The notes: generated from the letters alone by a model not told the origin. 46,385 nucleotides of DNA from Dehalococcoidia bacterium (GCA_038240335.1 JBBSDV010000002.1:1-46385); one strand, 5' to 3'. Positions 2,669 through 9,223 are shown, numbered from the stretch's first letter. Translations and numbers: made by a program.

Positions 2669-4123
2669 ATGGCCAAGGACACCGAAGTTCAGCGCCGCCT
2701 CGCGATCTCGCGCGTCCCGATTAACAAGCAGGATCCCGCCGTCCGCACGAAGAACTGGGACGAGGTCTTCCTCGGCTTCGATATCGAGGCGGCGAAGATC
2801 GAGGCATCACGCTGCATCCAGTGCCCGACCGCCCCCTGCCAGCAGGCCTGCCCCGTCGGCAACGACATCCCCGGCGCATTCAAGCTGCTCGAGATCGGCG
2901 ACGCGGACGGCGCGGCGAACAAGTTTCGCGAGACCAGCAACCTGCCCGAGCTGTGCGGCCGCCTTTGCCCCCAGGAGCGCCTCTGCGAGGGCGAATGCGT
3001 CGTCGCTTTCGCAATCCGCCCCGACATGCATCAGGAGCCACCGGTATCGATCGGCAAGCTCGAGGCCTTCGTTACCGACTACCAGCGCAAGACCGTCGGC
3101 ATCCCGCTGCCCGTCCTGCCCGCGCCGACCGGCTTTCGCGTCGCCGTCGTCGGCGCCGGCCCCGCCGGCATGGCCGTCGCCGAAGAACTCGCAAAACTCG
3201 GTCACTCGTGCGTCATGTACGACGCCTGGCCAGAGCCCGGTGGCATCCTGCTCTACGGCATTCCCAACTTCAAGCTCAGCAAGGAAGTGCTGCAGGACAA
3301 GCTGCGCTACCTCGACCGCCTCGGCATCGGCTTCGTCGGTAACACATGGATCGGGAAAGACGTCACGATCGACGATCTCTTCGCGCAGGGCTTCCATTCG
3401 GTGTTCGTCGGCACCGGCGCCGGTCTGGGCGGCTCGCTCGCGATTCCTGGGGAGGAGTACACCGGCATCTTCGCCGCGACGGAGTTCCTCGTCCGCGGCA
3501 ACCTGCGCCCGGAGCAGCTGCCCGAGCACATGCGCGAGACCCTCGATCCCGGCGCCAATGTCGTCGTTATCGGCGGCGGCGATACCTCCATGGACTGCGT
3601 GCGCACCGCCGTGCGCCTCGGCTCCCAGCACGTCACCTGCATCTACCGCCGCACCGAGACAGAGATGCTCGGCCGTCAGGAGGAGCGTCAGCACGCCCGC
3701 GACGAGGGAGTCGACTTTCAGTTCCTGACGATCCCCCTGCGCTTCATCGGCAACGCCGAAGGCCACGTCACCGGCGTCGAGTGCCAGCGCATGGCGCTCG
3801 GCGAGCCGGACGAGTCCGGACGGCGCCGCCCCGTACCCGTACCCCACTCCGAGTTCATCATCGACGCCGACACGGTCGCCGTCGCCATCGGCTACAACGC
3901 CGACCCCATCATCAAGGATGCCGCGCCCGGCGTCTCGACGAACAGGTGGAATCTCGTCGAGGTGCATCCCGATACATTCATGACGAGCCGCGCCGGCGTC
4001 TTCGCCGGCGGCGACAACGTCAACGGCGCAGACCTCGTCGTCACCGCCCTCGCCGACGGCCGCCGCGCCGCCCTCGCCATCCACGACTACCTGGACTCCC
4101 TCTCCCCGCCCGATCTCCCCTAG
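2669..4123 (+). CDS. gltD: NAD(P)H-dependent Fe-S flavoprotein, glutamate synthase small subunit/SudA/NfnB family
   Basis: EASRCIQC..PC...CP, CGRLCPQERLCEGEC, GAGPAG, GGGDTSMDC and GVFAGGD motifs; ATG 2669 preceded by GAGG. Confidence 0.8.
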   Translation: MAKDTEVQRRLAISRVPINKQDPAVRTKNWDEVFLGFDIEAAKIEASRCIQCPTAPCQQACPVGNDIPGAFKLLEIGDADGAANKFRETSNLPELCGRLCPQERLCEGECVVAFAIRPDMHQEPPVSIGKLEAFVTDYQRKTVGIPLPVLPAPTGFRVAVVGAGPAGMAVAEELAKLGHSCVMYDAWPEPGGILLYGIPNFKLSKEVLQDKLRYLDRLGIGFVGNTWIGKDVTIDDLFAQGFHSVFVGTGAGLGGSLAIPGEEYTGIFAATEFLVRGNLRPEQLPEHMRETLDPGANVVVIGGGDTSMDCVRTAVRLGSQHVTCIYRRTETEMLGRQEERQHARDEGVDFQFLTIPLRFIGNAEGHVTGVECQRMALGEPDESGRRRPVPVPHSEFIIDADTVAVAIGYNADPIIKDAAPGVSTNRWNLVEVHPDTFMTSRAGVFAGGDNVNGADLVVTALADGRRAALAIHDYLDSLSPPDLP

Positions 4124-4275
4124 CCGCCACGTCTCCGGTCGCCGGGCAATGTGACGTGCCAACCCCAACCTGCCCCCTAATCACCGGATCTCCGGTCGCC
4201 GGGCAGTGACGCGCGAACCCCAATCTGCCCCTAACCGCCAGGTCTCCGATCGCCGGGCAATGTGACGCGCCAACC
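4117..4275. repeat. Three degenerate tandem repeats of about 55 bp
   Basis: Core TCTCCG(G/A)TCGCCGGGCA at 4132, 4189 and 4243; the flanking GTGACG.GC.AACC and CCCCTA also recur. Confidence 0.85.
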
Positions 4276-4282
4276 TGAGGGC

Positions 4283-4434
4283 GGGAGCGCAGAGGGCGCA
4301 GCGCCTCTGCCGGGGGCCTGGGGGTGTCCCCCAGCAACCTCTTTCTTCTTCTCAAAAATTGTGTATCCGCGTACGCGCGAGCGGACACGGCGAATGAGGC
4401 GAGAAGCCGCGGCGACTGCCGGCCGCCGTGAACA
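4283..4434. repeat. Dispersed MITE/REP-like element, copy A
   Basis: Collinear blocks shared with 31612-31783; internal hairpins GCAGAGG..CCTCTGC and GGGGG-TGT-CCCCC. Confidence 0.6.
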
Positions 4435-4467
4435 GGGGTTCCGGGGTGTCCCCCGGATGGAGAGAAT

Positions 4468-4503
4468 GAAATAGCCCGGCCCCTCGAAGGGCCGGGCTAT
4501 TTC
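4468..4503. terminator. Intrinsic terminator-like hairpin, probably bidirectional
   Basis: Perfect 15-bp stem GAAATAGCCCGGCCC-N6-GGGCCGGGCTATTTC. Confidence 0.75.
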
Positions 4504-4552
4504 GACTGTGTTGCCAGGCCTGCTGCCCGGCTTCCGCTCTCGGGAGCGCCTG

Positions 4553-4621
4553 CTAGCAGGATACCCCCGAGGTGTTGCGGTCGTCGTTCGGCAAACAGGC
4601 CTTACAACTATCACTATGCAT
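4553..4621 (-). CDS. Putative 22-aa peptide MHSDSCKACLPNDDRNTSGVSC
   Basis: ATG lies 6 nt after the extended SD GAAAGGAGGTGAT; translation is unproven. Confidence 0.35.
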   Translation of the reverse strand: MHSDSCKACLPNDDRNTSGVSC

Positions 4622-4649
4622 ATCCGCATCACCTCCTTTCCTAGAGATC

Positions 4650-4677
4650 AGCATATCAAGCCCCCAAAAAAGATCAA
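4650..4677 (-). promoter_or_regulatory. Sigma70-type promoter
   Basis: TTGATC-N16-TATGCT with a TGn extended -10. Confidence 0.55.
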
Positions 4678-5020
4678 GCCGCAGAGGACATACTCCCAAT
4701 CGCCACAAACGCCGCCACCCCAACGCGAGCCTCCGCACGGCGTCACCGCGCGTCCTCGATGTTTGTTTGTCAACCACCGTCACAGGAGCTACGCCCGCCC
4801 CCGGGACGAAAGCCCACTCCAGTCAGGCAGCCGTTGACCGAGATAGTGCTTCGAGGAACCAGACGCGTTGACGACTAGCACGATCGCCGCCACGAGGCGC
4901 GTGCCCGGTACCGGTATAGGGCACGATTCGCGGCCAAGGGGGTCAGGCGGGACCAACTTTTTTTTGCTGCATATTGCAAATCGTATTGTTAAAGAGCAAG
5001 AGCCGTTCACACAACCGTAA

Positions 5021-5428
5021 CTACCGCGAGCATCCAGAACCGCCGTTGTCTAACAGCACGACTGGTGGGCCATGAAGACACTCGTTTGTCTCAGCGATGA
5101 TGCCAGAAACCGGCAGAGCTGAGAACCCGGCGAGCAGGAACGCGACTAGTAGGGATATGAGCGGGTTAACGTCGGTCGCACGCGCAGATCCAATACACCC
5201 GCCCACGAGCAAAAGACCGCTAGCCGCAAGGCCAAGCCAGAACAGCACGCTCTCTGCCAGAACGACGCCGTCTGACGGGTGCCGCCCAATCGCCCCAACG
5301 AGCGCATAGAACCCCATGAGCATGATCGCGAGGGCGAATAGCGCGCCCGCGAACGCCACGCATCCTACGATGAACGACAGCAGCAGTTCGCTCACCTTCA
5401 CGCTTCTAAACTCATTCGACTCACTCAC
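5021..5428 (-). CDS. Small 3-TM membrane protein, paralog 3
   Basis: Three hydrophobic segments, NPLIS..LAG, terminal C-x15-CSR; start overlaps the upstream stop. Confidence 0.7.
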   Translation of the reverse strand: MSESNEFRSVKVSELLLSFIVGCVAFAGALFALAIMLMGFYALVGAIGRHPSDGVVLAESVLFWLGLAASGLLLVGGCIGSARATDVNPLISLLVAFLLAGFSALPVSGIIAETNECLHGPPVVLLDNGGSGCSR

Positions 5429-5795
5429 CGTGTGAGCACCTATGTTCCCCTGTGTCGGGGAACGATGCTCGGACCGTGCAGTCGCCGTAAATCGAGACGC
5501 AACTGAAGAGCCACAACGCTGCGAGTCCCGTCAGTACCACCGCGACGGCAAGCGCGATCCACGGATTTGCGCGCAGCCGCTTGGACAACCGTACGGGGCC
5601 AGTGACGAGCACCACCAGCGATACGAGCACAACCGCGACGAAGAGGCCGACCGCGAGGGAACCTCGCACTACCTCGTAGTTGTCCGTGTCGAGCCCCCGG
5701 AAGGAGGCGTAGAACGCGACCAGCAACACCCATGCGAGCACCCCCTCGGCCACAAACGTCGTCACACCGAGCGCGACACTGCGCACTGCGGTCAT
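5421..5795 (-). CDS. Small 3-TM membrane protein, paralog 2
   Basis: NPWIA..LTG, terminal C-x13-CSH; ATG 5795 follows GGTGGAAG. Confidence 0.7.
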   Translation of the reverse strand: MTAVRSVALGVTTFVAEGVLAWVLLVAFYASFRGLDTDNYEVVRGSLAVGLFVAVVLVSLVVLVTGPVRLSKRLRANPWIALAVAVVLTGLAALWLFSCVSIYGDCTVRASFPDTGEHRCSHGE

Positions 5796-5841
5796 TATTC
5801 TTCCACCCGAAGCTCGATTCGTCGTAGTGCATGCGTTCGCG

Positions 5842-6207
5842 CTATCGAGTGCAAGCATCGACGGCGTACGGGATGCTCACGTGAAAATCGCAGCTGTTGA
5901 AGATTGACGTTACGAGAAGGAGAAAGTGCAAACCGGCACCCGCAAGAAGCATGGCGCATGCGAATGCGATCCAAACGTTCATCCTCCAGCGTCGGGCACA
6001 GAACATCGGCACCCCGAATAGTACCGTCGCCCCGCTCACTAATGTGATCGTCAACACGAGACAGGCCGAGACCGTTCGCGCCGCCGTGCCGGATGGTTCC
6101 AGCGCAGAGAGCCCCAGTCGGGATCCAAGCAGCGCCGCGTAGCTCGTTATCGCGGCGAGCGCGAACGTGCCGACCCCAATCGCGATACTCGCGACGTTGC
6201 GTCCCAT
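5842..6207 (-). CDS. Small 3-TM membrane protein, paralog 1
   Basis: NVWIA..LAG, terminal C-x12-CTR; ATG directly follows the upstream TAA. Confidence 0.7.
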   Translation of the reverse strand: MGRNVASIAIGVGTFALAAITSYAALLGSRLGLSALEPSGTAARTVSACLVLTITLVSGATVLFGVPMFCARRWRMNVWIAFACAMLLAGAGLHFLLLVTSIFNSCDFHVSIPYAVDACTR

Positions 6208-6909
6208 TTAACAGGATGTTTTCTTGCCCTGCTTCACCTTCGACCCGTCGCTGAAACGATCACTCGACGTCAACTGCGATGCCAGAGCGTTTGCGCCCTC
6301 GATTACTTCCGCCGCTCGCGCGGCCTGGGCGGTTCCGGCGCTATTGCCGCCGCTGCCCCCAATCAAGACCTTGAACAGCGGAGCCTCGATCTGAATGCTG
6401 CCTTCGTATAGTTCACTCGCGGCCGTGCCACGGATGGCGAAGTGTCGCTTCTTGGCATCCTCGATGATCGGAGTCGAGCACGCCGGCTCGACTGAGACTT
6501 GCACAGGTATCAGACAGGAGCCATGCTCGTTGTCCCCCGGCCGACAGGTTCCGTAGTAGATGTAGAAATGGTCTGTCGCCGGAATACCGTAACTACTCGC
6601 GGCCGTCGTGACGTGTTCACATCCAGTGAGTGGAAGCCCCTCGAAGTCTTCTCCCAGCCATACGAGGGGGTAGTCGTCGAACGACTTCATCAGTTGCTTG
6701 CATTTCACGGGGTCGGTCGCCTGAGATGGCGACGTCGACCCCGCGCCCGTGCCCGGCGTGGGATCTGTAACCGGATCAGCCGTGACCGACGCCGGTGAGA
6801 GGCGAGGATAGACAGCGGATCGGAACGCGAAGCCGAATGCGAGCGCGAACATGCCCACACCCAGAAAGACGATACCGCTTCGAAGGCGATGGGATTTGAA
6901 TCGATGCAC
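6208..6909 (-). CDS. Membrane-anchored or exported Cys-containing hypothetical protein
   Basis: GGAGG then GTG 6909; N-terminal TM, Pro/Thr linker, YPLVWLGEDFEGLPLT domain with 6 Cys. Confidence 0.7.
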   Translation of the reverse strand: MHRFKSHRLRSGIVFLGVGMFALAFGFAFRSAVYPRLSPASVTADPVTDPTPGTGAGSTSPSQATDPVKCKQLMKSFDDYPLVWLGEDFEGLPLTGCEHVTTAASSYGIPATDHFYIYYGTCRPGDNEHGSCLIPVQVSVEPACSTPIIEDAKKRHFAIRGTAASELYEGSIQIEAPLFKVLIGGSGGNSAGTAQAARAAEVIEGANALASQLTSSDRFSDGSKVKQGKKTSC

Positions 6910-6926
6910 GCGACCTCCGTCAGAAC

Positions 6927-7739
6927 CTACTGGATGTGGTTCACCCAGCCGTTGCTGCCCGACATTTCTTCGCTGCACTGGTGCATGCGCCGTATGTTTC
7001 CCCAATTCTCGACGCCGAGGAAGGAATGTCCCCCCACAGTGACGAGCTGATAGTAGAACCAGTCGCGGCCAGCGTCGAAACCACTGAGGTCCGGTCGCAG
7101 TCCCGGCCAACGGTTGCCGAACACCGCCGGGACGGCGTGCCAACACGGCCCCGTCCCCTGTTCTTGGTCATAGTGCGGCGTACAAGTTGCCCACGTTCCG
7201 CCGCGAGGATCGGCGATCGAGGCGACGATGTTGCAGCGGACGTGCCAACGCGATTCAGCGCAAGGAACGACCACATAACAAAACTGCGTTCCATCGTTCG
7301 TCGCGGAGCTTATCTCTCCTGCCACACAGGTCGCTCCGTCCTTAAAGTTTTGGTCGCCCTGCCCGTTCACCGTGATCCCGTTGTCGTTGAAAATCTGCTC
7401 GGCCTGCGCGCCGTTGCGCCGAATGATCATCGTGACCGGATCAATTTCGCCGGCATCATCAACGCAACCCGAGCCATAAGAGAACTGACTTCCGTTGGTT
7501 TGCCAGAATGCCGGCGGTGGAGGAATGGGCGTCGCCGTGGCCGTCGGCACCGCTGTCGCAGCACCACCTCCACCACCACCCCCGCCACCTCCGCCACCAC
7601 CGCAGGCGAAGTCGCTCCCGTCGCCCGTGCGAAGGTTGATGCAGGAGGCGGTGCCCGGCTGCTCCTTGCACTGATAGTCCGCGGCGACGGCAAAAAAAGC
7701 CAGCACCGCCAACCCGGCGACTAGTCCGACCCTTCGCAT
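6927..7739 (-). CDS. Secreted Cys-rich protein with a Gly13/Pro-Thr linker and a possible LssY C-terminal-like domain
   Basis: Signal peptide, 11 Cys, motif order DPV...RWHVR...HYD...H...FDAGRD. Confidence 0.65.
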   Translation of the reverse strand: MRRVGLVAGLAVLAFFAVAADYQCKEQPGTASCINLRTGDGSDFACGGGGGGGGGGGGGAATAVPTATATPIPPPPAFWQTNGSQFSYGSGCVDDAGEIDPVTMIIRRNGAQAEQIFNDNGITVNGQGDQNFKDGATCVAGEISSATNDGTQFCYVVVPCAESRWHVRCNIVASIADPRGGTWATCTPHYDQEQGTGPCWHAVPAVFGNRWPGLRPDLSGFDAGRDWFYYQLVTVGGHSFLGVENWGNIRRMHQCSEEMSGSNGWVNHIQ

Positions 7740-7984
7740 AACACACCCCCGCTTCGCTCCGCCGTCGTTGCTGGGGAGCCGATCCTAGCTTTTTGTTTTT
7801 TGTCCTGTCAAGCCCCCAATTTCGCCGCCCGGGGCGACGAACGCACGCCGCCAGCATGCTCCCCTGCAAGGTCACCAGCGCTGCAGCCTCCACTACCATC
7901 CAGCGTCCGAGCATCCCGCATCCATCGCCCCGCTGCGTCGCCCGACGCTCGGACATCAACCTCCACCCGTGCCATGCTCGCCGC

Positions 7985-8560
7985 ATGAACACACACCGCG
8001 CCCTCGCCGTCTCCGGCCCAAAGACACCCGAAGGAAAGACCCGCAGCAGTCGAAACAGCACCGGCCACGGGCTCCGCGCCAACGTCCTGGTCATGCCCCA
8101 ATTCGAAACCGAAGCCGACTGGGTGGCCTGTTCCGACGGCATCGTCGACAGCCTCGCACCCGATGGCGGCACGGAAGTCGCCCTCGCCGCGCGCGTCGCC
8201 GAACTCCTCTGGCGCCTCCGCCGCATCGCCCGCGCCGAAGTCCAAATGGTCGAGTCCGCTTTCGAGGCCACGCACACCAAGGACGCTCGCCAACGACAAA
8301 CGCGCGTCGACGCCGCCGAACAGCTCGCCGGCAGCTTCTATGGCGGTGGCTTCGAGCAGGAATCCGGAACGTCACCTGCTCCAACCGAACGACGGCTTCT
8401 CCCCGCCGATGGCGATCTCGATCAGCTGATCCGCTATGAAGCACACCTCAATCGCCAGCTCTACCACGCCCTCCACGAACTCGAGGCACTGCAGGCTCGC
8501 CGCAACGGATCGAGCCCCCCGCTCGCTCGTATCCAGGTGCACGGTCTCCCCGGATCATGA
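7985..8560 (+). CDS. Hypothetical protein of the GPKTPEGK...N..HGL type (related to HGGxSTG-domain proteins)
   Basis: SGPKTPEGKTRSSRNSTGHGL, WRLRRI and LIRYEAHLNRQLY motifs. Confidence 0.7.
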   Translation: MNTHRALAVSGPKTPEGKTRSSRNSTGHGLRANVLVMPQFETEADWVACSDGIVDSLAPDGGTEVALAARVAELLWRLRRIARAEVQMVESAFEATHTKDARQRQTRVDAAEQLAGSFYGGGFEQESGTSPAPTERRLLPADGDLDQLIRYEAHLNRQLYHALHELEALQARRNGSSPPLARIQVHGLPGS

Positions 8561-8699
8561 AAAGTGCCAAACGATTACATAACGAGAGCCAGGCAAGTAC
8601 CCAGCGCAGATCGCCGCAGCCATAAGAGAGACCCCAACGCGTGTGGCACTGGCGTCCTCGCCTCCGAAACATGAAAAGTGCTAAACGATTACATAACGA
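8556..8699 (+). repeat. Two direct copies of a 30-bp motif (8556-8585 and 8670-8699)
   Basis: CATGAAAAGTGC(C/T)AAACGATTACATAACGA, one mismatch between copies. Confidence 0.9.
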
Positions 8700-8727
8700 C
8701 AACGGGCTGCGACGGGGAGAATTGCGC

Positions 8728-8785: not shown

Positions 8786-9223
8786 GTGTCCGAGATAGAG
8801 CTGGTCATCGAGCGCCTGGAGATGCGCGGCCACCGGATGACCGGAAGCCGTCGCCGCGTGCTCGACGCCGTCATGGCCCAGCCCGCCCACTTCACCGTCG
8901 ACGACGTCCTGCACAGCACGCGCAAGGTGGGCCGCGCCACCGTCTTCCGCACGATGAAGCTCTTGCTCGACCTCAACATTGTCTGCCGCGTCATGCTCGA
9001 TGATGGCGCGCTCCACTACCGCGTCAGCACCCGCAGTCATCACCATCACCTCGTCTGCATCGACTGCGGCCGCGTCGAAGACTTTAGCCAGTGCGACGTC
9101 CAGTCGCTCACCCGCGATCTCGCCCAGGCGACTGGCTACGAGATCGAACGCCACTGGCTCGAGGTCTACGGCCGCTGCCACGCCTGCCGCCTCCTCAAGA
9201 CTGAGATGGCCGCCGTTGGTTGA
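8786..9223 (+). CDS. zur: Fur-family regulator, probably Zur
   Basis: ATVFRTM helix, HHHHLVCIDCG and YGRCHAC; heads a metal ABC operon; GAGGAGG SD. Confidence 0.8.
   Translation: MSEIELVIERLEMRGHRMTGSRRRVLDAVMAQPAHFTVDDVLHSTRKVGRATVFRTMKLLLDLNIVCRVMLDDGALHYRVSTRSHHHHLVCIDCGRVEDFSQCDVQSLTRDLAQATGYEIERHWLEVYGRCHACRLLKTEMAAVG

Follow-up and report, generated by a model that had tools for sequence, protein, structure and literature searches.

What does an operon of five small, closely spaced genes encode when its first two products are cysteine-rich proteins that look exported and its remaining three are diverged copies of one small membrane protein? We examined such an operon in a Dehalococcoidia bacterium of soil/sediment, on a stretch of 46,385 nucleotides (nt) (GCA_038240335.1 JBBSDV010000002.1:1-46385; hereafter the window, to which all coordinates refer). 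The original prediction for this DNA was an effector/poly-immunity system, i.e. an exported effector with a cognate partner and an expandable array of immunity or receptor proteins. This interpretation is partly supported: the computational checks proposed with it came out in its favour and what it predicted about the architecture holds, but the conserved unit, the type of repeat and the protein predicted to bind the first gene product had to be corrected. We propose, with a probability of roughly one half, that the locus is a polymorphic toxin-immunity module that depends on the general secretory (Sec) pathway, has a two-part extracytoplasmic immunity and is built from three uncharacterised families; toxicity is predicted. 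The operon contains the following elements.

6927..7739, minus strand: g1, 270 aa, called from the open reading frame (ORF) and the phase of GC content at third codon positions (GC3)
6930..7514, minus strand: C-terminal domain of g1, residues 76-270, 195 aa, rich in Cys, His and Arg; predicted catalytic or effector domain
6208..6909, minus strand: g2, 233 aa, with a GTG start 8 nt after GGAGG
5842..6207, minus strand: g3, 121 aa, paralogue 1 of the transmembrane (TM) family, with three TM segments and the tail N-x-C-x12-C
5421..5795, minus strand: g4, 124 aa, paralogue 2 of the TM family, with three TM segments, the tail C-x13-C and an ATG start after GGTGGAAG
5021..5428, minus strand: g5, up to 135 aa, paralogue 3 of the TM family and the most divergent one, with the tail C-x15-C
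7782..7811, minus strand: promoter-like site TTGACA-18 nt-TAGGAT, ending ~43 nt upstream of the g1 ATG

In the mechanism that we propose, g1 would be exported via its signal peptide and would fold outside the membrane with four disulfides, and a His/Arg-rich site (R164, H166, R168, H189 and H201, with D100, N248 and Q254) would attack an envelope component of neighbouring cells. g2 would be anchored to the producer's membrane, facing outward, and bind g1 over a conserved face, neutralising it at its site of action. The 3-TM proteins would expose a short, disulfide-stapled tail and act as a second, membrane-level immunity part or as a docking part, and the diverged extra copies g4 and g5 would widen protection against the variant toxins of competitors. 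The toxin-immunity reading fits because g1 and g2 are always adjacent, g2-TM units are repeated, 3' remnants of g1 and a decayed g1 occur, some genomes have the immunity genes only, the g1 leader is mosaic, the distribution is patchy and a g1-g2 complex is predicted. We infer toxicity and protection from gene architecture only, and the same status applies to export, membrane topology, the target of the toxin, binding as neutralisation and the role of the TM proteins.

We surveyed the three families in 36 genomes of the same family, including the genome with the window (G000). In this census, g1 is present in 8 genomes at 12 places, g2 in 17 genomes at 33 places and the TM family in 9 genomes at 20 places. 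A g2 homologue lies directly downstream, with its start within ~60 nt, at 12 of 12 g1-domain places. Moreover, 18 of the 20 TM places lie inside g2-containing loci, in line with the predicted linkage of the small proteins to g1 and g2 homologues; one of the two exceptions is at a contig end and the other is in frame with a permease-like ORF (G711). Hidden Markov model (HMM) scans of fetched loci with the family models returned the order g1-g2-TM at G550:C32, G589, G576 and G756, the last of which has g1 as the C-terminal part of a larger protein of 806 aa. Longer loci are found at G493:C22 (g1, g2, TM, g2, TM and a TM fragment, with a distant g1-like/g2-like pair ahead) and at G550:C17 (g1, g2, TM, a g1 3' remnant, g2, TM, g2, TM and TM). 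The distant genomes G540, G447 and G372 have a g1-like and a g2-like gene in this order, with an unrelated small ORF of 4 TM segments in third place. An alignment-based search for related loci returned one genome locus and three short metagenome contigs; g1-g2 pairing is also present on two short metagenome contigs, and the order g2-TM-g1 was found on a metagenome contig. In total, we conclude that the conserved unit is the triad g1-g2-TM.

As predicted for an expandable array, loci differ in TM copy number, with 1 to 4 copies each. The array differs from the predicted one in that its unit is the triad and in that the repeats in relatives are mostly g2-TM pairs, often with g1 3' remnants, and not the TM gene alone. 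In the window, g4 and g5 have no g2 of their own and would be additional immunity copies of the TM type. g1 can also be broken or absent where its neighbours are present: at G758:C15 (L047 4312-5088) an in-frame TAG splits g1 into two ORFs while g2 and TM downstream are intact, and 9 of the 17 g2-positive genomes have no g1, with g1 absent beside g2 in the five of these that were inspected. The system was present in 8 of the 401 genomes that represent the class and in 8 of the 36 in the family; in a phylum-wide sample of 401, the g1 domain was matched in 2 genomes, and 2 more were matched by the low-complexity leader only. The system is rare and its distribution patchy.

A second locus in the same genome, on contig C159, contains g1' (276 aa), g2', TM', a g1 remnant that is without the N-terminal half and contains stops, a lipoprotein-type g2'' and TM''. 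DNA identity between the window and the C159 cassette is 63% from -90 to -31, 85-95% from -30 to +208 and ~45% from there on; the 85-95% stretch runs from the end of the promoter region through signal peptide and Cys leader to the Gly run, and the ~45% stretch spans the remaining g1, g2 and TM. In addition, a 229-aa gene on contig C81 (G000:C81:7348-8037; L010 1498-2187) begins with the signal peptide, Cys leader and Gly run of g1 but ends in a Cys-rich domain that is unrelated. This C-terminal domain had no relative among 30 other family genomes, and the gene is followed by those for a SurA_N-like anchored protein and a lipoprotein. Two genes in tandem in G493 have a leader in common but very different g1-type domains. 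Three hallmarks of polymorphic toxins can be compared with these observations. A constant 5' part with switched C-termini is seen in the g1/g1' pattern and in the C81 gene, which is a single example; orphan tips with immunity genes are seen on C159 and at G550:C17, where g1 3' remnants are followed by g2-TM; and the effector at the C-terminus fits g1, in which the domain comprises residues 76-270 of 270.

g2 comprises a membrane anchor (~residues 12-30), a Pro/Thr/Ser linker and an ectodomain (~residues 68-233); the translation thus agrees with the predicted TM-anchored protein in having one N-terminal hydrophobic anchor and 6 Cys. In an alignment of 20 sequences, members of the g2 family begin with either a TM anchor or a lipoprotein-like Cys, followed by a linker that varies and by an ectodomain of ~165 aa; some Cys positions are lost pairwise. 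A word-indexed search returned 6 g2 relatives, 3 of them from the same genome. None of the 20 relatives matched a Pfam family (best E 0.051), and a sequence-profile search of the PDB with g2 returned matches only at E > 1. ESM Atlas feature scores of 0.91 and 0.86 had made DUF4245 and DUF4367 candidates for g2; these were rejected, as few features are common and 0 of the 20 relatives match either family in Pfam at E <= 1.

Modelling of pairs, which the original prediction had proposed as a check, pointed to g2 as a probable partner of g1. For the g1 domain with the g2 ectodomain, modelled from own alignments, the interaction prediction score from aligned errors (ipSAE) was 0.88 (runs 0.88, 0.87 and 0.89), compared to 0.00 for the best of 3 controls. 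The models had 143-149 contacts, of which at least 86% were common to the runs, and the predicted local distance difference test (pLDDT) of the partner was at least 88. Of 157 solved complexes, 116 attained the ipSAE mark, compared to 2 of 215 mismatched pairs. Altogether, the models support that g2 binds g1. It had been anticipated that the array of membrane proteins would supply immunity towards g1 alongside a cognate partner; a predicted partner does exist, but the best candidate for binding g1 is g2 and not a TM protein. On the g1 side, the predicted interface comprises 51 residues (26% of the domain) and includes 7 of the 15 near-invariant positions described below, among them D100, H201, N248 and Q254.

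The translation of g1 contains each of the features originally described, i.e. a signal peptide, Gly13, a Pro/Thr stalk and 11 Cys. Residues 1-19 are signal-peptide-like (MRR, a hydrophobic stretch and AVA-A), residues 21-59 form a Cys-rich leader (C24, C33 and C46) that ends in Gly13 (residues 47-59), and residues 60-76 form a Pro/Thr/Ala linker; 3 of the Cys are in the leader and 8 in the domain. While a word-indexed protein search returned 7 g1 relatives, an exhaustive HMMER search with a profile of the domain revealed a wider family of 259 representative clusters (clustered at 50% identity) at E <= 1e-3, with 79 at E <= 1e-10 and 26 at E <= 1e-30. The g1 domain has no match in Pfam or NCBIfam, and in 143 relatives Pfam recognises fused modules only, namely beta-helix, ricin-type lectin, FG-GAP, PPC and dockerin. 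Where relatives have several domains, the g1 domain usually closes the protein, ending at most a few residues from the C-terminus and placed behind ricin-type lectin, beta-helix, PPC or dockerin modules; in 7 of ~20 multidomain relatives it is N-terminal and the binding modules are C-terminal.

Across the 143 sequences, 15 positions of the domain are at least 90% conserved: C92, D100, P101, C138, R164, H166, R168, H189, C199, H201, G220, N248, Q254, C255 and G264. These residues correspond to two probable disulfides, an R-x-H-x-R strand, two further His, and an Asp, an Asn and a Gln, a constellation that looks catalytic or metal/phosphate-binding. The activity might be that of an extracytoplasmic hydrolase or phosphoesterase-type enzyme on an envelope component, and this is the weakest link of the explanation.

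AlphaFold2 with the 143-sequence alignment modelled the g1 domain with a pLDDT of 96.0 and a predicted template modelling (pTM) score of 0.92; a model of full-length g1 from 8 sequences (pLDDT 49.8) was not used. Foldseek returned no match for the domain at E <= 0.001 in the PDB or BFVD (best E 0.82, PDB). VIA-align against 48,161 chains gave a top Z of 5.0 over 104 residues, at a root-mean-square deviation of 3.2, for a Mediator subunit, which is within the tool's stated background. Similarly, a PDB sequence-profile search with g1 gave 0 matches, and ESM Atlas gave no usable match for the domain. The model has no clear neighbour among solved structures, which does not prove a new fold. Tentatively, the g1 domain may be the founder of a new-fold extracytoplasmic toxin family, whose 259 clusters are almost all metagenomic, with a two-tier, outward-facing immunity (g2 capping the toxin plus the 3-TM tail) and Sec delivery, in monoderm Chloroflexota.

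Several observations weigh against a toxin-immunity module. The g1 domain has no match to a known toxin family or fold (Pfam, NCBIfam, PDB, Foldseek and VIA-align), and there is therefore no independent sign of harm. R164, H166, R168 and H189, which form the possible core of an active site, are outside the confidently placed g2 contacts; therefore, occlusion of the site is not established by the model. The tight g1-g2 complex would suit a tether or a regulatory subunit equally well. The higher variability of the g2 interface than of the remaining g2 (mean column entropy 2.43 versus 1.89), which speaks for the module, comes from a comparison uncorrected for burial. g2-like lipoproteins are also found as solitary genes in unrelated contexts, e.g. 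in G663 after a secreted protein and a permease, and the g2 fold may therefore have a wider role. A search for the leader in 5 relatives returned g1-type genes only; the leader is seen on a different C-terminal domain only once, in C81, and polymorphism of the C-terminus is therefore limited. Finally, the locus is near-identical in the other samples that hold it, with no strain-level cassette replacement seen among them.

The main rival, less likely but of appreciable probability because nothing independent marks g1 as harmful, is a non-antagonistic surface enzyme complex. In this case, g1 would be a secreted housekeeping or accessory enzyme, e.g. for remodelling of the cell's own envelope or for breakdown of an external polymer, g2 its tether or regulator and the 3-TM protein an anchor or signaller, with the paralogues reflecting substrate diversification. 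The predicted tight complex and the His/Arg/Asp constellation, which looks enzymatic, are compatible with such an arrangement; dockerin, ricin-type lectin, FG-GAP, PPC and beta-helix fusions are also typical of secreted hydrolases, and the N-terminal domain with C-terminal binding modules in some multidomain relatives is as in many exo-enzymes. However, obligate subunits are hard to square with 3' remnants of g1, with a g1 that is broken while its partners are intact, with repeated g2-TM units that have no g1 and with genomes that have g2 only. Moreover, the system is patchily distributed and its neighbourhood is not retained between loci. The variability of the g2 interface also speaks against an enzyme complex: in the models, a conserved g1 face meets a variable g2 face, as would be expected of a diversifying inhibitor more than of an obligate subunit.

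A self-recognition or adhesion pair is improbable. Here, g1 would be a secreted or surface ligand, g2 and TM its membrane receptor, and the diversity would serve kin discrimination instead of killing. Co-diversifying neighbours, disulfide-rich extracytoplasmic proteins, the predicted complex and the variable g2 interface would all be expected from such a pair, but near-invariant His, Arg, Asp, Asn and Gln in 143 divergent sequences point to catalysis beyond binding, and orphan g2 and decayed g1 genes suit immunity better.

Two further explanations have very little probability. A metal-homeostasis accessory function, with g1 as a His-rich extracytoplasmic metal binder, is suggested by the three near-invariant His and by the neighbours in the window (a CopCD-cytochrome c gene, a Fur-family regulator and an ABC-3 transporter); however, this neighbourhood is not conserved, as the two g1 loci of the genome have unrelated neighbourhoods, the C159 locus adjoins lepA, the locus of the closest relative is between a rhomboid gene and a MerR/major facilitator superfamily (MFS) pair, and the ORF upstream of the operon (7793-8560) is missing at other loci. 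A phage-type lysis cassette, with g1 as secreted endolysin, g2 as spanin-like and g3-g5 as holin-like proteins, matches only superficially (an exported enzyme-like protein, a type-II anchored or lipoprotein partner and small 3-TM proteins), as 0 of the 5 proteins match PHROGs, the flanks of the window operon and of the related loci hold no phage genes, the Cys-pair tail of the TM proteins is predicted to be outside instead of being a charged cytoplasmic tail, and arrays of g2-TM pairs are foreign to such cassettes.

In the toxin-immunity module, the second immunity part would be the 3-TM protein, and the three paralogues were predicted to be related despite their divergence. BLASTP among them was convincing only in part, with E = 4e-8 for g3-g4, 9e-4 for g4-g5 and 0.51 for g3-g5. 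A cleaner test came from an HMM of 11 homologues, all from other genomes, which scored g3 at 70.9, g4 at 92.7 and g5 at 37.8 bits, compared to 4.9, 11.3 and 6.9 bits, respectively, for the best of 200 composition shuffles each. On this basis, g3, g4 and g5 are one homologous 3-TM family, as judged from sequence comparison. Kyte-Doolittle profiles have three hydrophobic segments in each of g3, g4 and g5, and hydropathy and translations agree with the 3-TM proteins of 121-135 aa with a terminal C-x12/13/15-C that had been described. Among 16 aligned members, conservation is seen at a Gly in TM1, at L-x-G in TM3 and in the tail N-x-C-x(11-15)-C. Basic residues (RRWR, KRLR) mark the N-terminus and the TM2-TM3 loop, and from the positive-inside rule the topology is therefore inferred to be N-in, C-out, which would place the Cys pair outside the cell. 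A word-indexed search returned 4 TM relatives, 3 of them from the same genome, and g3-g5 matched no Pfam family, DUF443 included, at E <= 1. A side observation concerns the permease-like ORF mentioned above (G711:C56; L056 4312-6087): a multi-TM permease-like protein runs in a 591-aa frame into a complete TM-family module (residues 472-588), with no g1 or g2 nearby. This frame is either a fusion or an orphan copy.

In colicin M-Cmi, in the immunity to type VI secretion system (T6SS) amidase/lipase effectors and in LanI, a protector tethered on the outer face of the cytoplasmic membrane binds an envelope toxin, and g2 would follow the same logic. No sequence or fold relation to these systems was found in PDB profile searches with g1 and g2 or in Foldseek and VIA-align searches with the g1 domain. 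None of g1-g5 had a match reaching the curated cut-off in Pfam, NCBIfam, PHROGs or PADLOC, and a search of titles and abstracts on polymorphic toxins or immunity in Chloroflexi or Dehalococcoidia found no description of the g1, g2 or TM families. What is new here is that a toxin-immunity logic that is already known would be built from three uncharacterised families.

Three published systems are closest. Polymorphic toxin loci are defined by a conserved 5' part, a divergent effector end and divergent downstream genes, and the general secretory pathway is their commonest export route (Zhang et al. 2012, PMC3482391). The operon and its relatives resemble the Sec-exported members of this group in having a signal-peptide protein with a putative C-terminal effector, a constant 5' and divergent 3' part, a partner directly downstream and orphan cassettes with toxin 3' remnants. 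It differs in that g1-g5 match none of the catalogued toxin or immunity domains in Pfam, g1 is short (270 aa) and has no RHS, filamentous or repeat regions, the two parts of the putative immunity (anchored ectodomain and 3-TM protein) would both be extracytoplasmic, and a C-terminal domain switch on the same leader is seen once. In Staphylococcus aureus, tspA is followed by 2-16 diverged genes for polytopic membrane immunity proteins (tsaI) and by a tspA 3' fragment (PMC9484751). Diverged polytopic membrane paralogues downstream, numbering 1-4 here, and a toxin 3' fragment within the array are common to both systems. By contrast, TspA is an LXG protein with type VII export and TsaI a five-TM DUF443 protein, while export here would be of the Sec type, the membrane proteins have 3 TM and no Pfam family, and an anchored ectodomain, g2, stands between toxin and membrane proteins. 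EsxX has two immunity classes, ExiAB and ExiCD, of which the membrane class is also found as an orphan in non-producers (PMC12744356). Two classes of protection proteins per toxin would be a shared trait, with the membrane class orphaned there and g2 here. However, ExiAB is cytoplasmic, whereas both candidate immunity parts here would face outward, and EsxX is a glycine-zipper, membrane-depolarising toxin, whereas the g1 domain is globular, rich in disulfides and conserved at a site that resembles that of an enzyme.

Sediments and subsurface soils harbour Dehalococcoidia and their relatives in large numbers; to our knowledge, almost nothing has been described of competition among them. If the toxin-immunity module is real, it would bring bacteriocin-like warfare to a lineage without a characterised example, a toxin domain family that is new and whose confidently modelled fold lacks a solved counterpart, and a new immunity architecture wholly outside the cytoplasm, all within a compact, testable locus of 5 genes and a single promoter. 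The conserved R-x-H-x-R / H / H site provides targets for mutagenesis, and the predicted g1-g2 interface provides a specific hypothesis on binding. If g1 were an ordinary exo-enzyme with a tether, the family would still fill a gap, as its domain, with 259 clusters, has no Pfam model.

The gene calls and the assembly bear out the five co-oriented, closely spaced genes of the original prediction. Five ORFs run on the minus strand from 7739 down to 5021; the GC3 phase fits every frame and changes exactly at the gene borders of g1-g5. Two junctions had been said to abut or overlap, and this was confirmed: g2/g3 abut (TAA then ATG) and g4/g5 overlap by 8 nt, while g1/g2 and g3/g4 are separated by 17 nt and 46 nt, respectively. 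A 312-aa ORF from 7146 is unlikely to be the real g2, as it overlaps g1 by 220 nt and the shorter 233-aa start is better supported; similarly, the listed g4 ORF is 145 aa and the shorter 124-aa start is better supported. The g5 start position is uncertain because of GTGs inside the ORF. TTGACA-18-TAGGAT is the sole sigma-70-like match within 4400-8700, and it is inside the stretch where similarity to the paralogous C159 locus climbs from 63% to 90%.

A contig from a different study (X3) covers 4958-7237 with 7 letters differing, and an X4 contig covers 5046-7105 with 1 letter differing and a 3-nt insertion. Independent contigs thus reproduce the g5-to-g1 order almost letter for letter, and the arrangement of three paralogues is therefore no assembly artefact. 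One X3 contig joins 4331 to 8674 and skips 4332-8673, i.e. the whole operon and the upstream ORF; its shorter side has only 23 letters, it may come from another organism or a repeat, and it was not relied on. No direct repeats flanking the locus were found.

The surroundings of the operon yielded further observations. The upstream ORF, at 7793-8560 on the plus strand, is divergent, encodes 255 aa and has coding-like GC3; it has no Pfam, PHROGs or PADLOC family and no counterpart beside other g1 loci. On the other side, the ~900-nt non-coding stretch from a GltD-like gene to g5 contains three tandem copies of a 54-57-nt unit (4109-4275; 79% matches). The CopCD-cytochrome c gene is an 806-aa ORF (127-2547) that fuses CopC, CopD and a C-terminal cytochrome c. 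In the closest relative, g2 has an extra ~160 aa at its C-terminus with no Pfam match (L011 6631-7806), and a gene that reads as rhomboid-like from its sequence is directly upstream of g1 (L011 4721-5470). Finally, a 36-nt direct repeat in the window (8550-8585 and 8664-8699, 92% identical and 114 nt apart) lies upstream of the Fur-family gene (8786-9223) and the ABC-3 metal transporter, and may be an operator pair.

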